Assembly: GCA_038063815.1 (NCBI GenBank)
Contig: JBBTUJ010000002.1
Coordinates: 6,511 to 70,510 of the forward strand
DNA length: 64,000 bases
Direction: 5' to 3'
Source of the DNA: Patescibacteria group bacterium
GTDB lineage: Bacteria; Patescibacteriota; Minisyncoccia; Phycocordibacterales; EsbW-18
Positions 16,133 through 53,495 of the stretch are shown here, piece by piece. The position numbers and the translations under genes were made by a program. Numbering within the stretch: the first letter of the stretch is position 1; each line of letters starts with the position of its first letter. Below the pieces are notes generated by a model. It did no database searches and was not told where the DNA came from. It saw only the letters and a program-made list of their open reading frames with translations.

Positions 16133-16969
16133 GTGCTATACTACTGCCATATGGAAGGCCTTAAAAAGAGTGCATATTTGGGAGTGATAAAGGAACTCAA
16201 GGGCGAGATCGAAAATGGAGGATTTCAGTCCGTGGGGAAAAGAGTTTTGGAAGAGTCAAAAATAAAGCCTGTATATACACTAGAGAAAGAAGACCCTCTC
16301 CTCTGCGACGAAAATAGACAAAAATTGAATACCGAGGCAGGTGTCGTTATCGCTAATCATCCAGGATACTTTGACACTTTTTTCATTCTGAACACTCTTA
16401 AGAGAAAGGATGTGAAAATCGTAGTAAGCGGATCCAACTACGAAACGTTTGGCCGTGCTATCGGTGAAGAGTTCCTAATCAAGGCAACACGTGACCCGTC
16501 CGAAGTAGTATCATTCCTACGTTCGATTAAAGATCACATAGAAAGTGGAGGACTCGTTCTTATATATCCAACAGGCGGGGGCCATGATAATGATAAGAAT
16601 CCTCCATTCGAAAATGGATTTTCAGTCATTCTTAAGAGATGTTTGAAACCCACCGATATGGTGTATTCATTTTATATCGATCCAGAAGACTTCGGACCTT
16701 TGGTTGACGAAAAAATCTCAAGGCTTTCGGGGATAGTGTCGGCCGTTACCGTTCACCCGTCCTTTAATGTGAACAGACTAAAAGAAGAGGCAGAAGTAAG
16801 GGTACATGAGCGATATTCAACCGCAGAAGAGTGGCAAGAAGTTTTAGACAGCTCGAATAAAAAAGAAAAGAACCAAAAACTAACAGAACATTTTCTGGGT
16901 AGTTTTCAGGACAAACCTGACACTGAACCTGGGGCGGAGGGTGAGGGATTCGAACCCTCGGTGGTATAA
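16133..16969 (+). CDS. Lysophospholipid (PlsC-like) acyltransferase family protein
   Basis: HX4D motif NHPGYFD and downstream IYPTGGG block. The C-terminal 12 codons overlap tRNA-Ser. AT-rich relative to neighbours. Confidence 0.55.
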   Translation: MLYYCHMEGLKKSAYLGVIKELKGEIENGGFQSVGKRVLEESKIKPVYTLEKEDPLLCDENRQKLNTEAGVVIANHPGYFDTFFILNTLKRKDVKIVVSGSNYETFGRAIGEEFLIKATRDPSEVVSFLRSIKDHIESGGLVLIYPTGGGHDNDKNPPFENGFSVILKRCLKPTDMVYSFYIDPEDFGPLVDEKISRLSGIVSAVTVHPSFNVNRLKEEAEVRVHERYSTAEEWQEVLDSSNKKEKNQKLTEHFLGSFQDKPDTEPGAEGEGFEPSVV

Positions 16970-17019
16970 CCCACACACGCTTTCCAAGCGTGCGCACTAG
17001 ACCGCTATGCGAACCCTCC
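16935..17019 (-). tRNA. tRNA-Ser (anticodon GGA), class II with a long variable arm
   Basis: Folded by hand: acceptor GGAGGGT/ACCCTCC, anticodon stem CACGC/GCGTG with loop TTGGAAA, T-arm GAGGG-TTCGAAT-CCCTC, discriminator G. No encoded CCA. Confidence 0.85.
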
Positions 17020-18698: not shown

Positions 18699-18782
18699 TG
18701 GTGCCGGGGGAGGGACTCGAACCCTCATCCCTTGCGAGACACGATTTTGAGTCGTGCGCGTATACCATTCCGCCACCCCGGC
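18699..18782 (-). tRNA. tRNA-Leu (anticodon CAA) with encoded CCA
   Basis: Acceptor GCCGGGG/CCCCGGC, anticodon stem CACGA/TCGTG with loop CTCAAAA, long variable arm, T-arm GAGGG-TTCGAGT-CCCTC, 3-prime ACCA. Confidence 0.85.
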
Positions 18783-30291: not shown

Positions 30292-30362
30292 TGCCGGATC
30301 GTCTAATGGTAGGACACCGCCCTTTGGAGGCGGGTATCTTGGTTCGAATCCAAGTCCGGCAA
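30292..30362 (+). tRNA. tRNA-Gln (anticodon TTG)
   Basis: U1-A72 acceptor TGCCGGA/TCCGGCA, anticodon stem CCGCC/GGCGG with loop CTTTGGA, T-arm CTTGG-TTCGAAT-CCAAG. No encoded CCA. Confidence 0.8.
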
Positions 30363-42309: not shown

Positions 42310-42975
42310 ATGGATGAAACCTCTGTTCCCCCTCTGTCACGGCGCACGATGCATTCAGCGCTTCTCGGGATTGCGATTCTCTCTGCACTTGTTGCGGTGA
42401 ATACGCTCTACATCTCGCTTTCGTCTGAACGATATCTGTATACCGACGTAAATACGGTCCCTGAATATGCGGCAGGACTTCTTCTGGGAACATCGCGCCG
42501 ATCAATCGGTGGAGAGTTGAGTCAGTTCTTCGATAATCGTATCAATGCGGCCGTGGCGCTCTACAGGGCAGGGAAGATTAAGGAAATCGTTGTGAGCGGA
42601 GACAACAGCACAAAGTACTACAACGAGCCCGTTGCCATGCAAAAAACGCTTCTTGAGCGCGGCATTCCCGAGGAGGACATACATCTTGATTATGCAGGAT
42701 TCAATACATACGACTCAATTGCGCGAATGTACCACATTTTCGGTCAAACAGAGTTCTTGATTATCTCGCAGAGATTCCATAGTGAACGCGCCGTTTTCAT
42801 TGCTCATTCGCTCGAACTTCCTGCGGCCGCGTTTACTGCAACACCGGTCGAAGGCATGATAGGATTTAGAGCAAACGTCAGAGAAATCGGGGCGCGTATC
42901 AAGATGTGGTTTGACGTCTTTCCGCGTCGTGAGCCGAAGTTTTTGGGCGAAACAATCGATATTGAAGCACAATGA
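42310..42975 (+). CDS. SanA/YdcF (DUF218) family protein
   Basis: N-terminal TM, with VVSGDNSTKYYNEP and ISQRFHSERA regions typical of DUF218. Confidence 0.75.
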   Translation: MDETSVPPLSRRTMHSALLGIAILSALVAVNTLYISLSSERYLYTDVNTVPEYAAGLLLGTSRRSIGGELSQFFDNRINAAVALYRAGKIKEIVVSGDNSTKYYNEPVAMQKTLLERGIPEEDIHLDYAGFNTYDSIARMYHIFGQTEFLIISQRFHSERAVFIAHSLELPAAAFTATPVEGMIGFRANVREIGARIKMWFDVFPRREPKFLGETIDIEAQ

Positions 42976-43436
42976 ACTACCTACAGCATCTTCTTTATTT
43001 TTGCGTACTCGGCGTCGTTGCGTTCCTTTTTCATTTCGTATGGGAATCGTCCCACGTCACGGCTCTGTATGGTGGATATGAGAACCTCGGCGGGGGAGTG
43101 CCTATCACGCTCTGGGCCGCATTTGGGGATGTCCTCTACACATTTCTTGCTGTGGGGATAGTGTCTCTTTGTGCTCGCGGCATATCGTGGGTGCGGAATA
43201 TCTCTCTCGCTTCATTTCTCGGTCTCGCGCTCATGGGACTCCTCATTTCTCTTTGTGTTGAATACCGAGCACTCGCACTTCACCGTTGGTTCTACCTTCC
43301 CGCGATGCCGATCATTCCGTATTTCAAAGTCGGCCTCTCTCCGGTCTTACAGATGATACTTTTACTTCCTTTAAGCATCCTTATAGCGAATCATGTTTAT
43401 AAGGTGATATGCAGGAAACAGGAAGTAGGTCTATAA
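42972..43436 (+). CDS. Hypothetical membrane protein
   Basis: Four TM helices. Confidence 0.45.
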   Translation: MNYLQHLLYFCVLGVVAFLFHFVWESSHVTALYGGYENLGGGVPITLWAAFGDVLYTFLAVGIVSLCARGISWVRNISLASFLGLALMGLLISLCVEYRALALHRWFYLPAMPIIPYFKVGLSPVLQMILLLPLSILIANHVYKVICRKQEVGL

Positions 43437-43448
43437 TTAGCTGTCAAT

Positions 43449-43628
43449 ATGGATCAAGAGATTAAAACACAAGAAATACAGGTGGACAAAAAATCTCACG
43501 TACTCCTCTGGGTCTTTTTTCTTATTGTGTTAATTTCTGGTGTTTGTATTATCTGGCGATTTCTTGTGGCAAAACAATATACAGTTATTGAGGACCCCGC
43601 GGACATGTCCACTTCTATCGAGGAGTAA
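43449..43628 (+). CDS. Hypothetical 59-aa membrane protein
   Basis: ATG start, one TM helix. Below the ORF-track cutoff. Confidence 0.3.
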   Translation: MDQEIKTQEIQVDKKSHVLLWVFFLIVLISGVCIIWRFLVAKQYTVIEDPADMSTSIEE

Positions 43629-43683
43629 TTATTGTGCCAGACTTTTTTCGTGCTGTACTAATAAACAGAAAGGGAGAGTTCTT

Positions 43684-44277
43684 ATGAATATATACGCAAC
43701 ACTAGGGATTGTCGCAGGAGCTCTGACGATTATTGAGTATGTCTACTACGGCTGGACGATCGTGAAGGGAGAAACCAAACCTTCACGTGCGACATGGTTC
43801 ATTTGGGCGGCTCTTACCATTCTCATCGCTTTTTCATATGATGCGGCGGGGGGAGAGGAAACCGTTTGGGTTCCATACGCAGCAGCCATAGGAACTTTTC
43901 TCATTGCAATCCTTAGTGTTCGCTATGGAGTCGGAGGATGGCAACCTATCGACAAAGTAGCAATAGTGATTGCTTTTCTTTGCCTTCCACTTTGGTTTCT
44001 CGCCGGGCCGGCCTGGGTACTTCTTGTCACGCTTGTGGTTGATGTGGCAGGCATCGTCCCCACTCTTTACAAGACCTATCAGCATCCAACACAAGAAAGT
44101 GGTATTGCGTGGGGGATGAACTTGGTGGGGTCGTTTCTTAACATTGCAGCTCTGGGAGCCATTGCAACATGGAGCTTTAGCGAAGCCCTGTATCCTTTCT
44201 ACATGCTCCTCATCAACGGGGCGGTTTTCTTCTTGATTGTCCGGCGAGATGTTTTGCCCACCCGGCTGCGTTTTTGA
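43684..44277 (+). CDS. Hypothetical polytopic membrane protein
   Basis: AGGGAGAG SD. Start moved to the ATG at 43684 (MNIYATLG...). Six TM helices. Confidence 0.5.
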   Translation: MNIYATLGIVAGALTIIEYVYYGWTIVKGETKPSRATWFIWAALTILIAFSYDAAGGEETVWVPYAAAIGTFLIAILSVRYGVGGWQPIDKVAIVIAFLCLPLWFLAGPAWVLLVTLVVDVAGIVPTLYKTYQHPTQESGIAWGMNLVGSFLNIAALGAIATWSFSEALYPFYMLLINGAVFFLIVRRDVLPTRLRF

Positions 44278-44687
44278 GAAGTCTTTTTTGGTTCCCGGAG
44301 TGCTGACTTTGTGTAACCCAAACGTTTAAAATAGGTGTTATCAAATTCGTTATAATTACAAAACAGTTCTTCACCGAGCTGAATATCTCGCATCGCGATA
44401 TCACGTTGCGGAGTTGACTTGATGTTTCGATGTTTAAAAGAGTGGTTTATGAATCGCTGGTCATCAGAAGGTAAAATGAGTTTTTTTAGTTTCTTATCGT
44501 AATATGCATACCATAATATTTGTCGTTGGCCGTGAGAGGACATTTTGGCCAAGTCTTTCTCGGTGTATCCAATGTCAAACTTTGGGTCATATTGCCACGT
44601 AACAGTACCCTTCGGAACAAACTGATCAGCAAACAGACCTACACCATGAACACCACTGGGACCAAGTTTTGCCTTTATACGTAACAT
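44199..44687 (-). CDS. SET-domain protein (paralog 1, degenerate NHS motif)
   Basis: GVHGVGLFA ... INHSFKHRN ... GEELFCNYNEF. The 3-prime end overlaps the convergent membrane gene by 79 nt. Confidence 0.6.
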   Translation of the reverse strand: MLRIKAKLGPSGVHGVGLFADQFVPKGTVTWQYDPKFDIGYTEKDLAKMSSHGQRQILWYAYYDKKLKKLILPSDDQRFINHSFKHRNIKSTPQRDIAMRDIQLGEELFCNYNEFDNTYFKRLGYTKSALREPKKTSQKRSRVGKTSRRTIKKKTAPLMRSM

Positions 44688-44744
44688 GCAGAATTTTTAA
44701 CTAGTGCTATAGTTAATACTATAACATTTCTTACGGATATATCT

Positions 44745-46409
44745 ATGCTTCCTGCAATTTGTGATTTTGAAGGTGCCCATTGGTTGCTGTTTTCTGGCAA
44801 CGTTCCACCGCTTGTCTACTATTCTCACTTCTCAGTTCTGATTTTGTCCCTTGCCCTTGCTGTTTTTATATACATGAGCAATAAGGCTCGACTACAGAAT
44901 AAGATTTTTGCAGGAACTCTTGTTTTATTTGCCGCATGGGTATTTTTGGACTCTATTTTTTGGGCGACAAATCGAAGCGATGTGATTATGTTCGCGTGGG
45001 CAACGATTATTTTAATCGAACCACTTATTTATGCGGGTTCAGTATATTTCTTATATGTAGCAAGCCACGGGATAGATATGCCACTAAGAGGAAAGATTTT
45101 TATTGCCGTACTTCTTCTTCCGATCATGCTCGCGGCCTCAACGGATTACACACTTTCAGGGTTTAACCTAACAACCTGTCTAAGTGAAGAAGGTTTTTTT
45201 GCCGTTCAGTACATTTATCCCCTCGAACTCATCCTTACTCTCACGGCTATAGTTATTGGGTTGGGAGCAGCAAAAAGAGCGAAAGATCCTGCAGATAAAA
45301 AACGAGTTCGCTTGTTAACAGTGGGGATTTTCTGCTTCCTCCTTGCATTTGGATGGGGGAATATTACGGGCAGTTTTACTGAAAACTGGCAACTAGGTCA
45401 GTTTGGTCTGATCGGAATGCCCATTGCTGCTATTTTCCTCGCATATGCAATTGTGCAATATCAAGCATTTCAAATAAAAGTTGCTGCTACGAACATACTT
45501 GTTGCGGCGTTATGGATACTTCTTTTATCTCTTCTCTTCATCAATAACCTTTCTATAATGCGTGTCATTGTGGCAGTGACATTTTTTGCGTCGCTGCCCC
45601 TCGGGGTTCTTTTGGTGAGGAGTGTTAAAAGGGTTCATCAACAAGCAGAAGAGTTGCAGGTTGCGAACGAGAAGCTTCAGGAGGAGGAAAAATTCCAATC
45701 AGAACTTCTTTCGGTCGCATCGCACCAGCTCAAAGGTCCTCTTGCGAATGTCATCGGATACAGCCAGAGTATTCTTGATGGTGATACTGGAGAGGTTCTC
45801 CCTGATACACAAAAGGCCGTTCACATCTCTCTCACAGCGGCGACAGGGGCTGTTTCGATGGTTGATGAATTCTTGAGTTTGGGACGCATCAAGCGGGGGG
45901 CGATGTTTTATGAGATGCAGGAGTGCGATACGAAGAAAATTGTCACCCAGACGCTCTTTGAGTTGCAGTTGGTTGCGGAAGTAAGGGGATTGAAGCTTTC
46001 CTCAAAGATTTCTGAAACGGATAATTTGAAGGTCGTTGCGGACGCATCCCGTCTGAAACAAGTTTTCTATATCCTTGTTGATAATGCAATCAAATACACG
46101 CCTACCGGATCAATCGAGGTGTCTCTCTCGCGAACACAAGATGCGATTGTATTTTCCGTGAAAGATACAGGGGTCGGTATCAATGATGAGGACAAGAAAC
46201 GTCTCTTTACCAAATTCGGTCGTGGAAAGGAATCATTCAAGACGAACGTGGCATCGAGCGGTCTTGGATTGTATCTCGCGAAAGAATTTGTTGCTGCACA
46301 TGGTGGCGACATCGGCGTTGAATCAGAAGGACAGCCGGGGAAGGGCTCGACGTTTTACGTAAAGATCCCGACGAATATACAGCCGGGAACAATTGGAAAC
46401 AAGGGATAA
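44745..46409 (+). CDS. Sensor histidine kinase with a 7-8-TM N-terminal sensor
   Basis: HisKA H-box SVASHQLKGPL, HATPase_c N, G1 and G2 boxes (DNAIKYT, DTGVGI, GLGL). Confidence 0.85.
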   Translation: MLPAICDFEGAHWLLFSGNVPPLVYYSHFSVLILSLALAVFIYMSNKARLQNKIFAGTLVLFAAWVFLDSIFWATNRSDVIMFAWATIILIEPLIYAGSVYFLYVASHGIDMPLRGKIFIAVLLLPIMLAASTDYTLSGFNLTTCLSEEGFFAVQYIYPLELILTLTAIVIGLGAAKRAKDPADKKRVRLLTVGIFCFLLAFGWGNITGSFTENWQLGQFGLIGMPIAAIFLAYAIVQYQAFQIKVAATNILVAALWILLLSLLFINNLSIMRVIVAVTFFASLPLGVLLVRSVKRVHQQAEELQVANEKLQEEEKFQSELLSVASHQLKGPLANVIGYSQSILDGDTGEVLPDTQKAVHISLTAATGAVSMVDEFLSLGRIKRGAMFYEMQECDTKKIVTQTLFELQLVAEVRGLKLSSKISETDNLKVVADASRLKQVFYILVDNAIKYTPTGSIEVSLSRTQDAIVFSVKDTGVGINDEDKKRLFTKFGRGKESFKTNVASSGLGLYLAKEFVAAHGGDIGVESEGQPGKGSTFYVKIPTNIQPGTIGNKG

Positions 46410-46411
46410 AT

Positions 46412-46816
46412 ATGACCCAGGATAAAAGCACTTCTTTTGTAGAAGTTAGAATCAGTAAGAAACATGGTAATGGATTGTTTGTCTTAAAAGATTTCTCGTC
46501 AGGGGAGAGGGTGTACTCTTTTTCTAAAGGTAGAATCGTTGGTCAAGGCGGGCTTAAAGATTTGTCTGCGGAGGAAAAAATGTACCTTGATAAAATAGGA
46601 GAAAATACATACGAAATTATCGAACCACCCGCACGTTACACCAACCACTCCTGTGAACCGAATATTCAAGAAAAAGAGAGGACAGGATACGCCTTGCGAG
46701 ATATTAAGATAGGTGAAGAACTTACCATCAATTATGATGAAGTTGCATATCTCGAAAAACCATTTAAATGCAGATGTGACTCCAGGAGGTGCAGAGGACT
46801 AGTTCGGGGAAAATAA
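46412..46816 (+). CDS. SET-domain protein-lysine methyltransferase-like (paralog 2, canonical motifs plus a Cys-rich post-SET)
   Basis: HGNGLFV, YTNHSCEPN, GEELTINYD, CRCDSRRCRG. Begins 2 nt after the kinase stop. Confidence 0.75.
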   Translation: MTQDKSTSFVEVRISKKHGNGLFVLKDFSSGERVYSFSKGRIVGQGGLKDLSAEEKMYLDKIGENTYEIIEPPARYTNHSCEPNIQEKERTGYALRDIKIGEELTINYDEVAYLEKPFKCRCDSRRCRGLVRGK

Positions 46817-46817
46817 T

Positions 46818-47219
46818 TTATTTCTTCGTGCCACTCTCAAGGAGGTCAAATATCTCCTCCATTACTTCTGATGGGACATGCGTTGCTTTGATGATGTATC
46901 GGTCAATCGGATACTCGCGTGATTTCTCGATATAGGTGGGATCGCTTTTATTCGTCAAAAAGACCACATATGCGTGTTCGGTGAGGCCGCGCTTTTTCAA
47001 TTCTTCGACGAGTTCAAACCCGTTCATCCCAGGCATATCGATATCAAGAACAAATGTGTCCGGTTTATATCCAGTATCAATCTTTGCCAAAGCGGCCTGC
47101 GCACTCGTCACCGTTTCAACATCAATGTTGTAGCGTTTCGCTTTTTGGGCGTAGAGATTAAGAAAAAACTGGTCGTCGTCAACGAAAAGGAGAGTGTGGC
47201 GTTTTCCTGAAGGAGGCAT
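46818..47219 (-). CDS. Single-domain response regulator (CheY-like receiver)
   Basis: LFVDDD, DIDMPGMNG and a conserved-Lys region. No output domain. Confidence 0.75.
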   Translation of the reverse strand: MPPSGKRHTLLFVDDDQFFLNLYAQKAKRYNIDVETVTSAQAALAKIDTGYKPDTFVLDIDMPGMNGFELVEELKKRGLTEHAYVVFLTNKSDPTYIEKSREYPIDRYIIKATHVPSEVMEEIFDLLESGTKK

Positions 47220-47375
47220 GGAGACAGATGTTAGGTTATAGCTTTTAGGTGATAGGTCTTGGAACAAGCAAATATAGAGAAAAGTATATCATACGGCTAT
47301 CCTTTGCACTTACAGCGATTGCTCTCTATACTATTTCTATACACCGAAAGCTACAAGCTATAACCTAGTTTTTAC

Positions 47376-48017
47376 ATGCACATAATGAAACAGGCACGTT
47401 TGGATCAGCTTGCAGACGGCATCTTCGCAATCGTCATGACGCTTTTGGCGATTGAGATTCACGTGCCGTTTCTCACTGGCACGATTACCAATGGGACTCT
47501 CTTACAATCTCTTTTTTCTCTGACGCCTCTTTTTTTGAGTTACGCACTTTCGTTTCTCCTCCTCTTTACCTATTGGCGAGGGCATCACTATATCGCGTCG
47601 GTTCTTGCGCAGAGTATCGACAACCGCCTGACGACCATAAACGCATTCTTTTTTCTGTCAGTCGGCCTTATCCCGTTCTCAACACTTCTTCTCGGACGAT
47701 ACTTCTTTACGCAAACGGCGATCGTTGCATATGGTATCAACATCATTGTAACGGGACTCCTTTTGTATTGGATGCGCCAGTACATCCTTTCTGCCCCGAC
47801 CATTGTGAATCAAGAATTAACACCGACGCTCCTGCAACATGGAACAATCCGGATTCTTTTTCCCGTGGCAGCAGCGATTGTCGCAATCGTCTTGAGTTTT
47901 GTGAGCATACAACTCTCACTCGTTCTCTTCACGCTCTGCATCCTTTTTAATCTTTCAAGCAGAAGCACGACACTCTTCCTTCGATTTTTCCCCAACAGTT
48001 TTCTTCGCAATCTGTAA
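47376..48017 (+). CDS. TMEM175/DUF1211-family membrane protein (putative K+ channel)
   Basis: RLDQLADGIFAIVMTLLAIEI signature helix and six TM helices. Confidence 0.6.
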   Translation: MHIMKQARLDQLADGIFAIVMTLLAIEIHVPFLTGTITNGTLLQSLFSLTPLFLSYALSFLLLFTYWRGHHYIASVLAQSIDNRLTTINAFFFLSVGLIPFSTLLLGRYFFTQTAIVAYGINIIVTGLLLYWMRQYILSAPTIVNQELTPTLLQHGTIRILFPVAAAIVAIVLSFVSIQLSLVLFTLCILFNLSSRSTTLFLRFFPNSFLRNL

Positions 48018-48490
48018 TGGAGACGCGAGCAATGTTTGGTGCCGGTTGTTTCTGGGGAGTCGAAGAAGTATTCCGTGTGTTTCCGGGTGTTGTAAAGACA
48101 CGTGTTGGATTTTCGGGTGGCACTGTCAAAGATCCTTCATATGCAAAAGTGTGCGAAGGGAACACGGGACATGCTGAAGTTGTTGAAATAATCTACGACC
48201 CTGGGCAAACAACCTACGAAAAATTACTGGACAGATTCTTTGAGATACACGATCCGACGCAAGTAAATCGACAAGGACCCGATGTGGGGGATCAGTATCG
48301 TTCTGTTATTTTTTACTACACCGCGGAACAAAAAGAGTCCGCAGAGAAATCAAAAGATACTCTTGCGGCATCAGGAAAGTGGCATAACCCTATTGCAACA
48401 GAGATTGCGCCCGCAGGAGAATTCTACGAAGCCGAAGAATATCATCAGCACTATTTTCTGAAAAACGGTGGCGGGACATGTCATGTCTGA
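48017..48490 (+). CDS. msrA: Peptide methionine sulfoxide reductase MsrA
   Basis: GAGCFWGVEEVF active-site motif. Confidence 0.9.
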   Translation: METRAMFGAGCFWGVEEVFRVFPGVVKTRVGFSGGTVKDPSYAKVCEGNTGHAEVVEIIYDPGQTTYEKLLDRFFEIHDPTQVNRQGPDVGDQYRSVIFYYTAEQKESAEKSKDTLAASGKWHNPIATEIAPAGEFYEAEEYHQHYFLKNGGGTCHV

Positions 48491-48577: not shown

Positions 48578-50026
48578 ATGGCATTTCCTATGAAATTTTT
48601 AACGTGGATAAAAGCACATAAAATCCTTTCTATCCTTGCTGGTCTGCTTATTATCATCATTGGAGCAGGTCTTATTTTTGCTCGTGGAGGCGGAGGGGAC
48701 GAAGAAATTGTTCTCGTGGAAAGGCGAGATGTTATTGAGACCGTTCGGGTGTCAGGAACCGTTGAGGCGGAAATAGTATCCGATGTTGGATTCGAAGCAT
48801 CGGGTGTCATCCGAAACGTATATGTGAAAGTGAACGATACGGTACGACGGGGGACACGGCTCGCTGATCTTGGTATGGGCACGCTTCCCGCACAACTGCA
48901 ATCGGCTGAAGCTGCTCTTGCCATCAAGCGTGCGGAGAGCGCGAACACATCAATCAACTTGAGTGCGATAGAGGAAAAACACGATACGTTTGTGGCGAAC
49001 GCAGAGAGCGAACTCCTTTCCGATGATCTTATCGCAGAGGCGCACAGTAGCACCTATACCATGACACCACCTGTGATAAGTGGGCGTTACGAAGGTCCGC
49101 GGGGGACATACAAGATTCGCATCGACCGGGGCGTTTCAAATGAATATGATCTGTATGTGTTTGACATGGAAAATGTAGAGCCGGTTGAGATTAACAAAAC
49201 CGGTTCGACACCTCTTGGTGAACGTGGGCTTTTTATCAGTTTTCCCGACGGAATTTCGAGCTACGATGACACGACATGGTACATTACGACTCCTAATAAA
49301 AAAGGCAGCTCATATTCAGTGAACGTAAGTGCTTGGGAAGACGCTTTGGCTGAGCGAGAACGTGCACTTAAATCCGCAGAAGAAGAGATTCGTGCCCAAG
49401 GCGCAGGTAGCTCAATCGCTGAAGCACAGCTTCTTCAAGCAGAAGCAGAAGTCGCTCGCATACGGGCTCTCATGGCAGAACGTACGCTTGTAGCACCCTT
49501 CGACGGTATCGTAACTGCGGTTGAGATCGATCCGGGAGAAACAGCCGGCGTTGGCGATTCCGCGATGTCTCTTATCTCCACGACTGGTTTTGGGGTGGAA
49601 GTGGACCTTCCTGAGGTTGATAGTATTCGCGTCAGGTCTGGTAACCCTGCCGAGGTTGTTCTCGACGCTCTTCCTTCCGAACCATTCAGCGCGACAGTCG
49701 TTTCGGTGAACCGAACCGAGACAATCGTCGACGGTGTCTCGGTCTATGAAGCGCGTCTTGCGTTTGGTCTTGAAGATGAGCGGATTATTTCCGGTATGAC
49801 CGCAGATGTTACGATTACTGCGAACAAGAAAGAAAATGTACTCGCACTTCCTGCGCGAGCACTCAAACTCAGTCCCGATGGATCATTCTTTGTGAATGTA
49901 TACAACGGCGATACAAAAGAAATAACCGAAACGCCTGTTACGACCGGTCTTCGTGGAGGAGATGGGTTTGTCGAAATAATCGCGGGACTTGGCGAAGGGG
50001 TGCGGATAGTGGTATCCCACGAATAA
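48578..50026 (+). CDS. Efflux periplasmic adaptor (HlyD/MacA-like membrane fusion protein)
   Basis: N-terminal TM, coiled-coil hairpin, beta-barrel and lipoyl-like segments. Confidence 0.7.
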   Translation: MAFPMKFLTWIKAHKILSILAGLLIIIIGAGLIFARGGGGDEEIVLVERRDVIETVRVSGTVEAEIVSDVGFEASGVIRNVYVKVNDTVRRGTRLADLGMGTLPAQLQSAEAALAIKRAESANTSINLSAIEEKHDTFVANAESELLSDDLIAEAHSSTYTMTPPVISGRYEGPRGTYKIRIDRGVSNEYDLYVFDMENVEPVEINKTGSTPLGERGLFISFPDGISSYDDTTWYITTPNKKGSSYSVNVSAWEDALAERERALKSAEEEIRAQGAGSSIAEAQLLQAEAEVARIRALMAERTLVAPFDGIVTAVEIDPGETAGVGDSAMSLISTTGFGVEVDLPEVDSIRVRSGNPAEVVLDALPSEPFSATVVSVNRTETIVDGVSVYEARLAFGLEDERIISGMTADVTITANKKENVLALPARALKLSPDGSFFVNVYNGDTKEITETPVTTGLRGGDGFVEIIAGLGEGVRIVVSHE

Positions 50027-50029
50027 TTT

Positions 50030-51292
50030 TTGTATATGAAAGACGCACTGCGTGTAGGGCTCATGCTCGGCTGGAAACAGCTACGGCACGCGAGTATCTG
50101 GACGACGATGCTCATCACCTTCGTCATGATGTTGACGTTTTTGAACCTGGTTGCCGTCTCCGGTATTCTCGTCGGACTCATCGAGGGGTCGGTCAAGGCA
50201 TACAGCGATCAGTTCACGGGAGATATTTTTATTACGACGCTTCAGGGTGAGAAGCACATCGAGAAGTCGGGTGATTTGCTCTCGACGATGGCGACCATCC
50301 CCGGCGTTGATGCTTACACAGCCCGCTACACTGAAGGGGTAACAATTGAAGCAAATTATCGCGAACGCCGCGATCCAAAAGCACTCCGCGACACTGTTGG
50401 TACCACAATCGTAGGGCTTGATCCCGAGGCAGAAGAGGTGGTGACGAATCTCTCGCGGCATCTTGTTGAGGGAGAATATCTCACTCCAAATGACGCAAGC
50501 TACGTCATGCTCGGGGCAACACTGCTTGAACAGTACTCACCACTCGGGCAAGGGGATGATGTCGGATTCCCGACGCTCTCGGATGTTCATCCAGGGACAC
50601 GGGTTCGTGTCACTGTGGGAGACGCAACGAAGGAATATATTGTGAAGGGGATTCTAAAGACGAAGGTGGATGAGATTTCGCGTCGTATTTTTGTTACCGA
50701 CAGCGAATTTGTTCGTCTTGCGGGACGCACGAATTTGAACGTGAACGAGATGGCGATTCGTGTTGAAAAGGACACTCCCGCTTCACGGGTTAAACAATCA
50801 CTCATCGCGAGTGGTGCTTCTGAATATGCGCTCGTCCGCCTTTCCCGCGAAGGTCTGCCAAAGTTCTTAATCGATGTCATGAATACATTCGCGCTCCTCG
50901 GGAACGGCATTAGCTCGATTGGTCTCGTTGTCTCATCGATTACGATTTTTATCGTTGTGTTCGTGAATGCGATCACGAGGCGGAAGTACATCGGAATCCT
51001 GAAAGGTATTGGTGTACGTGCGTCCGCGATCGAACTCTCATATGTCTTTCAGTCGCTTCTCTATGTTCTCGCCGGCTCCGCTCTCGCGCTTATCATTATT
51101 TATGGGCTCCTTGTTCCTTTTTTCAATTCGCACCCCATCGATTTCCCATTTTCTGATGGCATTCTGGTGGCACCGCTTGGAAGTACTCTCATCAAACTCG
51201 TAATCCTCATTGTTGCAACGGTCATCGCTGGGTACATTCCTGCGTGGATGATTATCAAACGCAATACGCTTGACTCGATTTTAGGACGCTAA
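50030..51292 (+). CDS. ABC transporter permease, FtsX/MacB-like
   Basis: TM helix, large periplasmic domain, then three C-terminal TM helices. Confidence 0.75.
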   Translation: MYMKDALRVGLMLGWKQLRHASIWTTMLITFVMMLTFLNLVAVSGILVGLIEGSVKAYSDQFTGDIFITTLQGEKHIEKSGDLLSTMATIPGVDAYTARYTEGVTIEANYRERRDPKALRDTVGTTIVGLDPEAEEVVTNLSRHLVEGEYLTPNDASYVMLGATLLEQYSPLGQGDDVGFPTLSDVHPGTRVRVTVGDATKEYIVKGILKTKVDEISRRIFVTDSEFVRLAGRTNLNVNEMAIRVEKDTPASRVKQSLIASGASEYALVRLSREGLPKFLIDVMNTFALLGNGISSIGLVVSSITIFIVVFVNAITRRKYIGILKGIGVRASAIELSYVFQSLLYVLAGSALALIIIYGLLVPFFNSHPIDFPFSDGILVAPLGSTLIKLVILIVATVIAGYIPAWMIIKRNTLDSILGR

Positions 51293-51296
51293 CTCT

Positions 51297-51995
51297 ATGA
51301 TCGAAGTAAAAAATCTTGTAAAGAATTATGGAAAAGGAGACGTGGTGACGCACGTTCTCCGCAACATAAACCTCCGTATCAAAGCCGGGGAATTCGTTGC
51401 AATCATGGGAAAATCGGGTGCAGGCAAATCGACGCTCATGTACCAAATGAGTTTACTTGATGTACCAACATCAGGGACGGTGACATTGGATGGTATTGAG
51501 ACCGCAGGGCTCTCCGAGGCAGATCGAACACTTTTTCGCTTAAACCGCCTCGGATACATCTTCCAGGACTACGCTCTTTTGCCGGAACTTTCTGCTGCTG
51601 AAAATGTTATGGTGCCACTTCTTATGACAGGAATGTCGCGCGCAGAAGGAATGACAAAAGCAATGAGGGCGCTTGATGCGGTTGGGCTTGGCCATCGTCT
51701 CGACAATCGTCCTGCACAACTCTCCGGTGGCGAACAGCAAAGGGTCTCGATTGCGCGCGCGATCGCGGAGAAGCCGGACATCCTTTTTGCCGACGAGCCA
51801 ACGGCGAACCTGGATTCCGTCTCCGGCGAAGCGGTCATAAAAGTTATGCAGGAGTTGCATCAAAAACAAGGACAGACGATCGTTATGGTCACCCATGAAG
51901 ATGAATATGCCGCAGCTGCGGACCGCATCATCCACCTTGAAGATGGTGTCATTGTGAGCGATACAACGGTCAATGGGCGCGAGGGAGCGAAATAG
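51297..51995 (+). CDS. ABC transporter ATP-binding protein (MacB/LolD-type)
   Basis: Walker A GKSGAGKST, signature LSGGEQQR, Walker B ILFADEPT. Confidence 0.85.
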   Translation: MIEVKNLVKNYGKGDVVTHVLRNINLRIKAGEFVAIMGKSGAGKSTLMYQMSLLDVPTSGTVTLDGIETAGLSEADRTLFRLNRLGYIFQDYALLPELSAAENVMVPLLMTGMSRAEGMTKAMRALDAVGLGHRLDNRPAQLSGGEQQRVSIARAIAEKPDILFADEPTANLDSVSGEAVIKVMQELHQKQGQTIVMVTHEDEYAAAADRIIHLEDGVIVSDTTVNGREGAK

Positions 51996-52695
51996 TCACT
52001 TTTGTCCCAACGCCCGGTTTACTTGCAAGTGTTAGCCGTCCGTTATGTTGTTGTGCGATAGCTGCTGCAATTGGAAGTCCCAGTCCTGAGCCCGGGATGG
52101 TGTATCGGACCATCTCGCTCCGATATAAGGGCTCGAGAACCCTTTTGTGTTCGTGTGAGGGAATACCGATACCATTGTCTTCAACAACAACCACACACCG
52201 TTGTGGTGTAGCGGAGAGCGTAAGCGCAATCATGCGATTTCCCGCCTGCTGATGCATATATTTAATACTGTTCTCGACGAGCGTCATCAAAAGTTCTTCA
52301 ATCTGATGCGGTACGGCGCATATCATTACATTCGGTGTTGTATGAACCGTAACGCTTATGCCGTGTGTGAGCGCTTCATCTTGGATATACCGCGATACAT
52401 TTTTTACGATACAGCTCGCACACACTTTTTTTCGCGTCTGTTTTTCTTTTTCATCTACAAGTCGCCGGAGACGCAGTGCGTCATAGACAAGCAAGGACAT
52501 ATTCTCAAGAACACTCTCGCATACGATGAGACGTTCCTGATTAGGAACGTCTTTCTTTAAAAGTGAAATCTCACCTTTGACGATGGTGAGCGGTGTTTGC
52601 AAACTATGCGCGATCGTCCCAAGAACAACAGCGCACTCTTTGCACATGCATGCATTCGAAGTCGTGGTTGGCTGTGTCTCCGAAGCGTCTCTCAT
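51970..52695 (-). CDS. Cytoplasmic sensor histidine kinase (no TM segments)
   Basis: H-box AHSLQTPLT, HATPase_c motifs (ENSIKY, DNGIGI, GSGLGL). The 3-prime end overlaps the convergent ABC ATPase by 26 nt. Confidence 0.75.
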   Translation of the reverse strand: MRDASETQPTTTSNACMCKECAVVLGTIAHSLQTPLTIVKGEISLLKKDVPNQERLIVCESVLENMSLLVYDALRLRRLVDEKEKQTRKKVCASCIVKNVSRYIQDEALTHGISVTVHTTPNVMICAVPHQIEELLMTLVENSIKYMHQQAGNRMIALTLSATPQRCVVVVEDNGIGIPSHEHKRVLEPLYRSEMVRYTIPGSGLGLPIAAAIAQQHNGRLTLASKPGVGTKVTISLPRAH

Positions 52696-52700
52696 GGTGG

Positions 52701-53375
52701 TTATGGTACTGCCGCTATCTTATATCCTGATCCTGGTACGGTATGAATGAGCTTGCGTGTTCGGGTACGTTCGATTTTCCGTCGCAAGGTCATCACGTGT
52801 GCTTCGATCGTATTTGAGAACGGATCAACTGACATGTCCCACACGTGCTCCAAGATCTTTGCGCGGGAAACGACCGCATCTCTATTTCGCATAAGATATT
52901 CAAGGAGCATATATTCTTTCTTCGTGAGCAAAATACGTTTTCCAGCACGCTCCACCTTTTGTTCACGTGTCGAAAGAGTAAGATCGTCAATCGAAAGTGT
53001 GTCACCTTGAATCCCGTGTGGACGACGCAAAAGCGCACGTGCTCGTGCGCGAACTTCGTCGAGACAAAACGGCTTTGTGAGGTAGTCATCAGCACCAGCA
53101 TTCAAAAGGTTGATCTTTGTTGTTGTATCGCCACGGACGGAGAGAGACAAGATGGGTGTCATCGTTCCATGTGCGCGGATATCCTTACACACAAAAAGGC
53201 CCTCCTTTTTGGGGAGGACGTTATCAAGGATGATAAGGTCGTATTCGTTGGTCTTGGCGAGAAAGGCACCTCGCTCGCCATCTTCGGCGGTTTCGACTAT
53301 GAGACACTCGCATTCGAGGCCTTTTTTGAGGACTTCTGCGATGTCTGGGTTATCTTCTATAACGAGTGCGCGCAT
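52701..53375 (-). CDS. OmpR-family response regulator
   Basis: Receiver (ALVIEDN ... LILDNVLP) plus a winged-helix C-terminus (GYKI). Start set at MRALVIEDN. Confidence 0.85.
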   Translation of the reverse strand: MRALVIEDNPDIAEVLKKGLECECLIVETAEDGERGAFLAKTNEYDLIILDNVLPKKEGLFVCKDIRAHGTMTPILSLSVRGDTTTKINLLNAGADDYLTKPFCLDEVRARARALLRRPHGIQGDTLSIDDLTLSTREQKVERAGKRILLTKKEYMLLEYLMRNRDAVVSRAKILEHVWDMSVDPFSNTIEAHVMTLRRKIERTRTRKLIHTVPGSGYKIAAVP

Positions 53376-53495
53376 ATCCCTTTGTGCGGTCTTTATACTC
53401 CTCGTTTTTTGACTTGTAAAGGACGACTTCATAAAGATTTTATCTTGGGTTTTGAGATGGCTCTGCCCTCAAATGCAGGTTAAAATGAAGGCGTA

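Follow-up and report, generated by a model that had tools for sequence, protein, structure and literature searches.

Why should a bacterium keep genes for SET-domain methyltransferases directly beside the gene for a membrane-embedded sensor histidine kinase? The question is raised by a locus (positions 43684-48017) in a 64,000-nucleotide stretch of DNA, hereafter the window, from a Patescibacteria group bacterium (GenBank assembly GCA_038063815.1, contig JBBTUJ010000002.1, positions 6,511 to 70,510 of the forward strand). A sequence-only reading of this DNA had pointed to two SET proteins, a kinase with many transmembrane (TM) segments, a receiver-only regulator and a TMEM175 homologue. All of them are present where it had placed them, as judged from the listing of open reading frames (ORFs) and a Pfam profile scan, by which the genes were identified; all positions given here are window coordinates. 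The unit that is conserved, however, consists of one of the two SET proteins (SET1), the kinase and a 197-residue membrane protein (TM197), a third member that was absent from that account. These three genes are held together across many lineages, in differing orders and between differing flanking genes. We put a probability of roughly 60% on the reading that they form a conserved module of the Patescibacteria, in which the SET enzyme works at TM197, the kinase, with about nine TM segments, reads the same process, and methylation takes place within the unit.

The TM197 gene (43684..44277) lies on the forward strand and converges on the SET1 gene (44199..44687, reverse strand, 162 residues). 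The kinase gene (44745..46409, forward strand, 554 residues) runs divergently from SET1, and the two are separated by a 57-bp spacer (44688..44744) that reads as AT-rich (26% GC). The Pfam SET score of SET1 is 39.2 bits, well above the gathering cut-off of 22.4 bits (PF00856), and the kinase scores 33.6 bits with HisKA and 95.6 bits with HATPase_c. The convergent TM197 and SET1 genes overlap by 79 nt (44199-44277), because SET1 has a basic C-terminal tail of about 35 residues (KKTSQKRSRVGKTSRRTIKKK...), which the window shares with its closest relative alone. Both of the overlapping reading frames are conserved between these two. Across the other lineages, the spacing between TM197 and SET1 ranges from -86 to +189 nt.

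The same arrangement is found around orthologues of the kinase. At 87%, 46% and 44% identity (the kinase-side loci L035, L036 and L039), a SET1-type gene of 133-162 codons lies divergently upstream at a distance of 51-68 bp, and a gene for a membrane protein of about 197 residues converges on it. The outer flanks of these loci differ (NUDIX, receiver and TMEM175 genes; an LCAT-like gene; a Pif1 helicase gene). A metagenome scan from the SET1 side, with the family alignment as query, gave 80 loci. When the SET1 proteins were clustered at 90% identity, 77 lineages resulted; the window and the three kinase-side loci are counted among them. Twenty-six of these lineages are at least 45% identical to the window SET1, and 24 have enough upstream sequence to be judged. 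A kinase of the same family is adjacent in 19 of the 24: immediately divergent in 16 (gaps of 16-90 bp), with one intervening gene in two, and beyond the membrane protein in one. Under a stricter rule for absence, which uses profile hidden Markov models (HMMs) and requires at least 2.5 kb on both sides, the kinase is present in 19 of the 26 close lineages, demonstrably absent from none and not assessable in seven. TM197 stands beside SET1 in 21 of 23 assessable close lineages; it is absent in two, and three are not assessable.

The order and orientation of the genes vary. The order is SET1, TM197, kinase in L052, whereas in L067 and L072 the kinase and a TM197-like gene share one strand, the latter placed between kinase and SET1, and SET1 is divergent. 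In L066, a TM197-like gene, a canonical SET gene and the kinase form an operon from which SET1 diverges, again with the TM197-like gene between kinase and SET1; in L096, a TM197-like gene, a canonical SET gene, a SET1-like gene and the kinase are co-directional. L122 and L123, the kinases of which are 35% identical to that of the window, carry no SET1, and there a TM197-like gene, a canonical SET gene, a 45-codon ORF and the kinase gene follow one another in the same direction. In L063 and L064, a class-I methyltransferase of 319-321 residues (PrmA/PRMT-like, 28.8 bits) is inserted between kinase and SET1. Two paralogous multi-TM kinases flank the SET1-TM197 pair in L048 and in L063 (2329-7968).

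The canonical SET proteins of L066, L096 and L122 belong to a different subfamily from the second SET protein of the window (SET2). In 11 of the 77 lineages, a SET1-family gene has another SET gene within 2 kb; therefore two SET genes per locus are a recurrent feature, in which the SET2 subfamily takes part only in the window. Genes of the SET1-like and the canonical SET type also stand in tandem in L080 (5001-5905), L087, L088, L071 and L109, which suggests that SET paralogues could function in pairs. No kinase or TM197 gene is found near the L080 pair, which has long flanks; the other four are on short contigs, and their neighbourhoods are not assessable.

SET1 itself is not degenerate. The motifs GxGLFA, RFINH and GEELxC(D/N)Y are invariant in the alignment of 34 homologues, as are the residues Gly15, Gly17, Asn81, His82, Glu107 and Tyr112 and the Leu-Phe-Ala that follows Gly17. 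Mean pLDDT (predicted local distance difference test) of the AlphaFold2 model is 87.5, with values above 90 in the core. A Foldseek comparison of this model with the PDB gave 238 SET-domain matches at E <= 0.001, headed by SETD8, MLL1, EZH1, NSD1 and LegAS4 (probability 1.00), and the best matches by structure and by sequence are protein-lysine methyltransferases. SET1 had been described as degenerate; what it lacks is only the Cys-rich, Zn-binding post-SET, which is missing from the whole SET1 family. This places it in the SET superfamily, outside the subgroup of the SET1/SET2/SUV39 type that bears a post-SET. The Ser-Phe that follows Asn-His is accounted for by the absence of the Zn-ligand cysteine, and not by degeneration. 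Judged by alignment and model, SET1 has an intact SET fold with its cofactor and catalytic motifs, and methyl transfer itself is predicted.

Members of the SET1 family are 50-62% identical over about 130 residues. Close homologues (47-62% identity) include proteins annotated in the cyanobacteria Spirulina and Nostoc (P0263, P0284 and P0288). Two metagenome loci with close SET1 proteins (L046 and L051) show neither kinase nor TM197 in the available flanks. This means that the SET1 clade extends beyond the Patescibacteria and beyond the module.

Seven helices are predicted for TM197; its single-sequence three-dimensional model is of low confidence (pLDDT 51). A profile built from 58 sequences matches the SemiSWEET structure 4RNG (E = 1.5e-4) across the whole of SemiSWEET, and the match falls on the first three helices of TM197; a smaller profile of 16 sequences retrieved nothing from the PDB. 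In hhalign, the N-terminal half aligns with 4RNG at 63% probability, and the two halves align with each other (residues 13-80 with 118-187) at 91.7% probability and E = 8e-7. On the basis of the SemiSWEET match, the homologous halves and the seven helices, TM197 appears to be a SWEET/PQ-loop-like protein with two three-helix repeats around a linker helix (3+1+3), and a putative homologue of the MtN3-like clan. The PQ motif is absent: repeat 2 has a near-invariant Pro-Thr (Pro126-Thr127) where 4RNG has Pro-Gln, and repeat 1 has no proline equivalent to that of the motif. The family comprises 2,610 representative clusters at E <= 1e-3. Two other assignments were dropped. Profile-profile comparison found no relationship of TM197 to the kinase sensor, and a heliorhodopsin was set aside in view of the length of only 197 residues and the lack of a conserved lysine in the last helix.

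In other lineages, a TM197-like protein and a methyltransferase form a single polypeptide. P0436 and P0439, two TM197 relatives, end in a canonical SET domain. The two proteins align co-linearly over 331 residues with 34% identity, and their SET domain is of the subtype whose gene directly follows the TM197-like gene in L066, L096 and L122. Furthermore, P0317 is a TM197 relative fused to a PrmA-like methyltransferase. Because these cytoplasmic enzymes are attached at the C-terminus, the C-terminus of TM197 and its basic loops (TKPxRATW and PTxxKxYxxPxxE) are expected to face the cytoplasm. Other relatives (P0327 and P0323 among them) are fused to the C-terminal domain of an MprF-type lysyl-phosphatidylglycerol synthase, to an ArgRS (arginyl-tRNA synthetase)-like region, or to STAS or TPR domains. 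Those of the MprF and ArgRS type recall the architecture of MprF/LysX, a hint that aminoacylated lipids or basic amino acids may be involved. Some fusions (to a transposase and to TsaE) look accidental.

The kinase begins with a hydrophobic region of about 295 residues, which is followed by HisKA and HATPase_c. A sensor of seven to eight TM segments had been proposed; topology prediction gives about nine hydrophobic segments instead, with the N-terminus outside. The full-length family comprises more than 258 clusters that are 32-47% identical over both sensor and core. Nearly all members are unnamed or from Patescibacteria, the annotations including Zambryskibacteria, Nomurabacteria, Taylorbacteria and Paceibacterota. 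Among 24 homologues, conservation of the sensor equals that of the catalytic core: Cys6, His28, Trp65, Trp73, Cys145, Glu149 and Glu161 are invariant in the former, and His327, Asn447, Asp474, Gly476, Gly478, Gly506 and Gly508 in the latter. By alignment, the kinase thus retains all catalytic residues. Cys6, in the N-terminal tail, and Cys145, in the loop between TM4 and TM5, are both in predicted extracytoplasmic segments. Together with the invariant His28, Glu149 and Glu161, they might form a disulfide, or a site in the sensor for a metal or a ligand. The sensor may be distantly of the HisKA_7TM type (PF16927): three of the 24 full-length homologues match this model (best E = 5.6e-8); the window kinase does not at E <= 0.1. 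L124 (3008-7041) and L125 encode the sensor domain once more as a protein of its own (344 residues, no kinase core), upstream of an EamA transporter gene, and kinase and receiver genes follow. This paralogue, which in L124 bears a weak PF16927 mark, may modulate the kinase.

The spacer between SET1 and kinase presumably carries back-to-back promoters for the two genes. In 15 other lineages, the corresponding spacers measure 16-87 bp and are AT-rich, with TATA-like elements. No operator-like motif is shared by the window and these 15 lineages, and a promoter and terminator scan gave counts equal to the expectation from shuffled sequence.

The receiver gene (46818..47219, ORF to 47267) is on the reverse strand and encodes a CheY-like protein (Pfam Response_reg, 66.5 bits) that has no output domain. 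Its start is likely the ATG at 47219 (MPPSGKRH...), which gives 133 residues. The sequence-only reading had counted the receiver as part of a signalling module; a receiver lies near the kinase in a few lineages, namely the window, L035, L042 and L124, and not in most. The receiver is one gene away from the kinase in the window and in the syntenic L035; two similar single-domain receivers adjoin the module in L042, and a 133-residue receiver directly follows the kinase orthologue in L124. The other receiver of the window (52701-53432) adjoins a second kinase. From these neighbourhoods, the 133-residue receiver is the probable cognate partner of the module kinase.

In the module as we propose it, SET1 would be docked on the cytoplasmic side of TM197 and work there. 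The kinase, via its large and conserved TM sensor, would read the same membrane or transport process and would signal through the single-domain receiver (46818-47219). As this receiver carries no DNA-binding output, the response is probably one of protein-protein contact. Methylation would act on a component of the unit (TM197, the kinase or the receiver), so as to tune or record its activity. As to the methyl acceptor, a protein of the module might be the first candidate, a small molecule handled by TM197 a nearly equal one, and something else a lesser one. A more far-reaching form of this proposal, which we put forward tentatively, is that a SET enzyme has been built into a bacterial sensory unit, docked on or fused to a SWEET/PQ-loop-like protein. 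Lysine or amine methylation would then be a step of adaptation, memory or substrate trapping, with TM197, the kinase or receiver, or a carried cationic amino acid as the target.

Several observations weigh against the module as proposed. Many contigs are short, which is why seven of the 26 close lineages cannot be scored for the kinase. Among the more distant SET1-like proteins (below 45% identity), the kinase is present in five lineages and demonstrably absent in 12; the link is therefore a property of one SET1 clade, and its conservation could in part come from shared ancestry within one class of the Patescibacteria. SET and TM197 are both missing from two kinase lineages (40% and 32% identity), in which an EamA transporter gene stands directly upstream of the kinase instead, so that the kinase does not strictly need a SET partner. 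One of the two also carries the sensor domain as a separate protein and a receiver gene directly downstream. Most lineages have no adjacent receiver. TM197 matches no Pfam model (16 members compared, models including MtN3 and PQ-loop), its connection to SemiSWEET is one PDB match at E = 1.5e-4, and its predicted three-dimensional model is unreliable, which makes the Foldseek result obtained with it meaningless. In addition, the TM197 alignment shows no invariant lysine, and the SET-associated kinases have no lysine that is specifically conserved in them; for this reason no methyl-acceptor site can be named. In a search of the kinases by differential conservation, Lys117, Lys245 and Lys450 were found to be conserved, yet largely so in the EamA-associated kinases as well, and they were rejected as candidates.

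The product of methylation might also be a solute. It is possible, though we doubt it, that TM197 transports a solute such as a cationic or other amino acid, that the SET or PrmA-like enzyme methylates this solute, and that the kinase senses the flux jointly with the transporter. The resemblance of TM197 to SemiSWEET and its 3+1+3 repeats suit such a role, and relatives with a PQ-loop carry cystine, lysine or arginine (PMC5972207; PMC4649669). TM197 has methyltransferases of two unrelated folds as fusion partners or neighbours, and amino-acid chemistry recurs in its other fusions, that is, the C-terminal lysyl-phosphatidylglycerol synthase domain of MprF and the ArgRS-like region. The EamA transporter directly upstream of the kinase in the two lineages that lack SET and TM197 would also fit. 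Furthermore, free methionine is the substrate of a bacterial SET enzyme, BurB (PMC12542666), which is a match of the SET2-family profile (E = 1.6e-10). BurB is, however, not among the matches of the SET1 profile, and the best matches of both the SET1 and the SET2 family are protein-lysine methyltransferases. TM197 lacks the PQ motif, and each fusion is a single observation, some of them seemingly accidental as mentioned above. These points weigh against a solute as the acceptor.

The role of SET2 has to be considered separately. Its gene (46412..46816, forward strand, 134 residues; Pfam SET 46.5 bits) begins with an ATG 2 nt past the stop codon of the kinase, just as the sequence-only reading had stated, and no terminator-like site is found at the junction. 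From this gap and the lack of a terminator-like site, SET2 is probably co-transcribed with the kinase in the window genome. The claim that the two SET proteins are diverged paralogues is also borne out (28% identity over 101 residues, E = 3e-8), although the relationship is distant. The SET2 subfamily is tight, with about 20 sequence clusters at 50-65% identity, and has the motifs GxGLF, NHSCEPN, GEELTIDYD and a CxCx4C post-SET. SET2 itself shows the full set that had been ascribed to it: NHSCEPN, GEELTINYD and the post-SET cysteines Cys81, Cys120, Cys122 and Cys127. Gly19, Gly21, Asn78, His79, Glu103 and Tyr108 are invariant or nearly so across 20 sequences. The family profile matches the SET domains of KMT2, ASH1L, NSD and SETD2 (E = 1e-15 to 1e-12; KMT2, 3e-15), and its best sequence matches are, like those of SET1, protein-lysine methyltransferases.

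The model originally drawn from the locus had SET2 methylating the co-transcribed kinase or the receiver, with SET1, the receiver and TMEM175 completing a unit of methylation, phosphorelay and ion channel. The 2-nt gap and the complete, canonical motif set of SET2 speak for it, as does the recurrence within the module of a second canonical SET protein, of another subfamily, in L066, L096 and L122. The genomic contexts of SET2 lead elsewhere. They were drawn from six orthologues on longer contigs and from a scan with one genome per species, which added 24 loci, mostly of Patescibacteria, with some of Methanosarcinales and Woesearchaeota. The genes of the six orthologues lie between SecA and SecD genes, or near genes for cupin, CutA, NUDIX, GNAT, HAD or epimerase proteins. 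When searched with the window kinase core and later with profile HMMs, none of 34 SET2-family loci had a kinase, TM197 or EamA gene within about 6 kb, whereas the same kinase query recovered the second kinase of the window as a positive control. A conserved link between SET2 and the kinase was accordingly rejected, the kinase being absent from the six orthologue contexts and the 24 scanned loci. Thus the expected co-occurrence of kinase and SET genes stands for SET1 and fails for SET2.

Comparison with L035 points in the same direction. L035 is the closest relative of the window locus (kinase 87% identical, DNA about 76% identical), with synteny that extends from the DUF218 gene past the downstream ABC (ATP-binding cassette) transporter. 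The DNA homology ends precisely at the stop of the kinase (46408) and restarts precisely at the stop of the receiver (46819); the position occupied by SET2 in the window is taken in L035 by an unrelated NUDIX gene. Because of this clean exchange and the lack of a kinase in the 34 loci, SET2 is, by sequence comparison, a recent lineage-specific cassette in a variable slot, outside the conserved module. An ancestral SET2-NUDIX block with differential loss was rejected: the L035 NUDIX protein is only distantly similar to the NUDIX proteins that neighbour SET2 elsewhere (E of about 1e-5 to 1e-6), and a NUDIX homologue is missing from the window. With TMEM175 also missing from the surveyed kinase-bearing loci other than L035, the model centred on SET2 is improbable; at the level of gene content it is largely refuted by lack of conservation. 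Of the proposed coupling of protein methylation to phosphorelay, the genomic link of SET and kinase survives, by way of SET1 and TM197; SET2 and TMEM175 do not belong to it.

The least probable explanation is that no functional coupling exists, adjacency being inherited synteny in one gene-dense clade and the fusions being artefacts of gene calling: the association is indeed found mainly within one SET1 clade and grows weaker among distant relatives, every fusion was observed once, and neighbours in compact patescibacterial genomes are often unrelated, but the trio persists although the flanking genes differ between lineages, it is kept in at least five gene orders or orientations with two SET subfamilies and with kinases down to 35% identity, and the two divergent TM197-SET fusions are co-linear over both parts and carry the subtype that follows the TM197-like gene in L066, L096 and L122.

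The TMEM175-family protein (47376..48017, forward strand, 213 residues; Pfam TMEM175, 72.2 bits), which had been proposed as a module part, accompanies the kinase only in L035 among the loci L035-L119 (about 24 kinase-bearing lineages), and the Pfam listings of L120-L125 contain none. By this survey of gene content, it is a mere neighbour that is not conserved with the module. In the stretch 47376-48490, the TMEM175 gene is followed by one for an MsrA/PMSR methionine sulfoxide reductase, which starts at 48017, where the TMEM175 gene ends; the 1-nt overlap suggests translational coupling, and the two genes are neighbours in L035 too. An efflux-plus-regulator block follows (48578-53432), with genes for a membrane-fusion protein (48578-50026), an FtsX-type permease (50030-51292) and an ABC ATPase (51297-51995), and, on the strand opposite to these efflux genes, a short histidine kinase (51970-52695) and a response regulator of 243 residues (52701-53432). 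The genes of the ABC ATPase and the short kinase overlap convergently by about 26 nt. The whole block is syntenic in L035, where the regulator is of the OmpR type. In an Rfam scan, the window gave three tRNA genes (16935-17019, 18702-18782 and 30292-30362) and no other RNA family above threshold. In the PADLOC defence models, TM197, SET1, SET2, the receiver and TMEM175 were unmatched, and the kinase matched only the generic ATPase-type candidate model PDC-M43B. Profile scans of the proteins encoded in 42310-48490 found no CheR, CheB, MCP (methyl-accepting chemotaxis protein), CheA or CheW domain; CheB turns up solely as a weak match of a receiver domain.

SET enzymes are best known as eukaryotic histone methyltransferases, and the bacterial ones have been discussed almost exclusively as host-targeting effectors or as modifiers of chromatin proteins. 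A SET enzyme that is kept by a sensor kinase and fused repeatedly to a membrane protein points to a native membrane role in prokaryotes, which touches on an old problem, the function that SET domains had before there was chromatin. Since the genomes of Patescibacteria are tiny and encode very few signalling proteins, a kinase module that is conserved among them probably governs a central part of their episymbiotic life. The analysis of TM197 also defines a large uncharacterised family (2,610 clusters) related to SWEET/PQ-loop transporters. The three module proteins are small and could be expressed, and the substrates to be tried can be listed: the TM197 loops, the cytoplasmic domain of the kinase, the receiver, and free lysine, arginine or methionine.

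Literature searches on SET proteins with histidine kinases or two-component systems, with the candidate phyla radiation (CPR), or with SWEET/PQ-loop proteins found nothing relevant, which agrees with the earlier remark that no comparable bacterial system had been characterised. The standard review of bacterial SET proteins mentions neither kinases nor operons (PMC3980110). The trio is robustly supported as a gene module and is previously undescribed in the literature searched; the kinds of component (SET, sensor kinase, receiver, SWEET/PQ-loop-like protein) are already known, and the mechanism is the inferred part.

Among known proteins, the minimal SET lysine methyltransferases come closest; they are likewise single domains of about 120-160 residues with GxG, NH and ELxxxY motifs. 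Prokaryotic and viral examples are Go1-SET of Methanosarcina mazei, NUE/cpnSET of Chlamydia and vSET of a chlorella virus. The SET1 model superposes on Legionella LegAS4/RomA, as it does on SETD8, MLL1, EZH1 and NSD1. The SET2 family resembles canonical SET enzymes in its Zn-binding post-SET, from which SET1 differs in having none. The roles described for known SET proteins of bacteria and archaea, unlike that proposed for the module, are modification of chromatin proteins or action on host histones as secreted effectors; to our knowledge, no prokaryotic SET protein has been described with a dedicated membrane partner or sensor kinase. BurB of Burkholderia (PDB 9l4t), a SET-domain methionine S-methyltransferase, is an example of a SET enzyme that acts on a free amino acid (PMC12542666). 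It is a stand-alone bacterial SET protein of about 180 residues and a relative of the SET2 family, but it serves biosynthesis of dimethylsulfoniopropionate (DMSP) and malleicyprol, has no module of kinase and membrane protein, and was not retrieved by the SET1 profile.

TM197 resembles eukaryotic SWEETs and PQ-loop carriers in its two three-helix repeats and linker helix, the first three helices matching 4RNG, and rare seven-TM bacterial members of this group have been reported (PMC5972207). It differs in the lack of a Pfam MtN3/PQ-loop match and in the replacement of the PQ dipeptide, and its transport role is putative. Fusion or adjacency to a methyltransferase is not reported in the SWEET/PQ-loop papers found (PMC4649669, PMC5972207). 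The kinase shares with the HisKA_7TM (PF16927) kinases a multi-TM sensor joined directly to HisKA and HATPase_c, and three of 24 relatives match that model; the window kinase is distinguished by the lack of a match, by its roughly nine segments and by the family-specific, invariant pair of extracytoplasmic cysteines.

Two kinds of known signalling system come closest to the module as a whole. In the pairs BceAB-BceS, DcuB-DcuS and UhpC-UhpB, a transporter and a kinase sense together. The module is similar to them in that a membrane-embedded kinase with no large extracytoplasmic domain is encoded beside a transporter-like gene, a place taken by EamA in the lineages without SET; we know of no such pair that includes a methyltransferase. 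A tie between reversible protein methylation and a histidine-kinase phosphorelay with single-domain receivers is well known from one system, chemotaxis, where CheR and CheB act on the receptors governing CheA. Its enzymes and chemistry are unrelated to those of the module: CheR is a class-I methyltransferase that acts on glutamates of the MCPs, whereas the module has a SET enzyme and a kinase that is itself the membrane sensor. If the sensory-unit form of our proposal is true, the module would be a SET-based counterpart of methylation by CheR, and possibly an ancestral, non-chromatin role of SET enzymes in prokaryotes.

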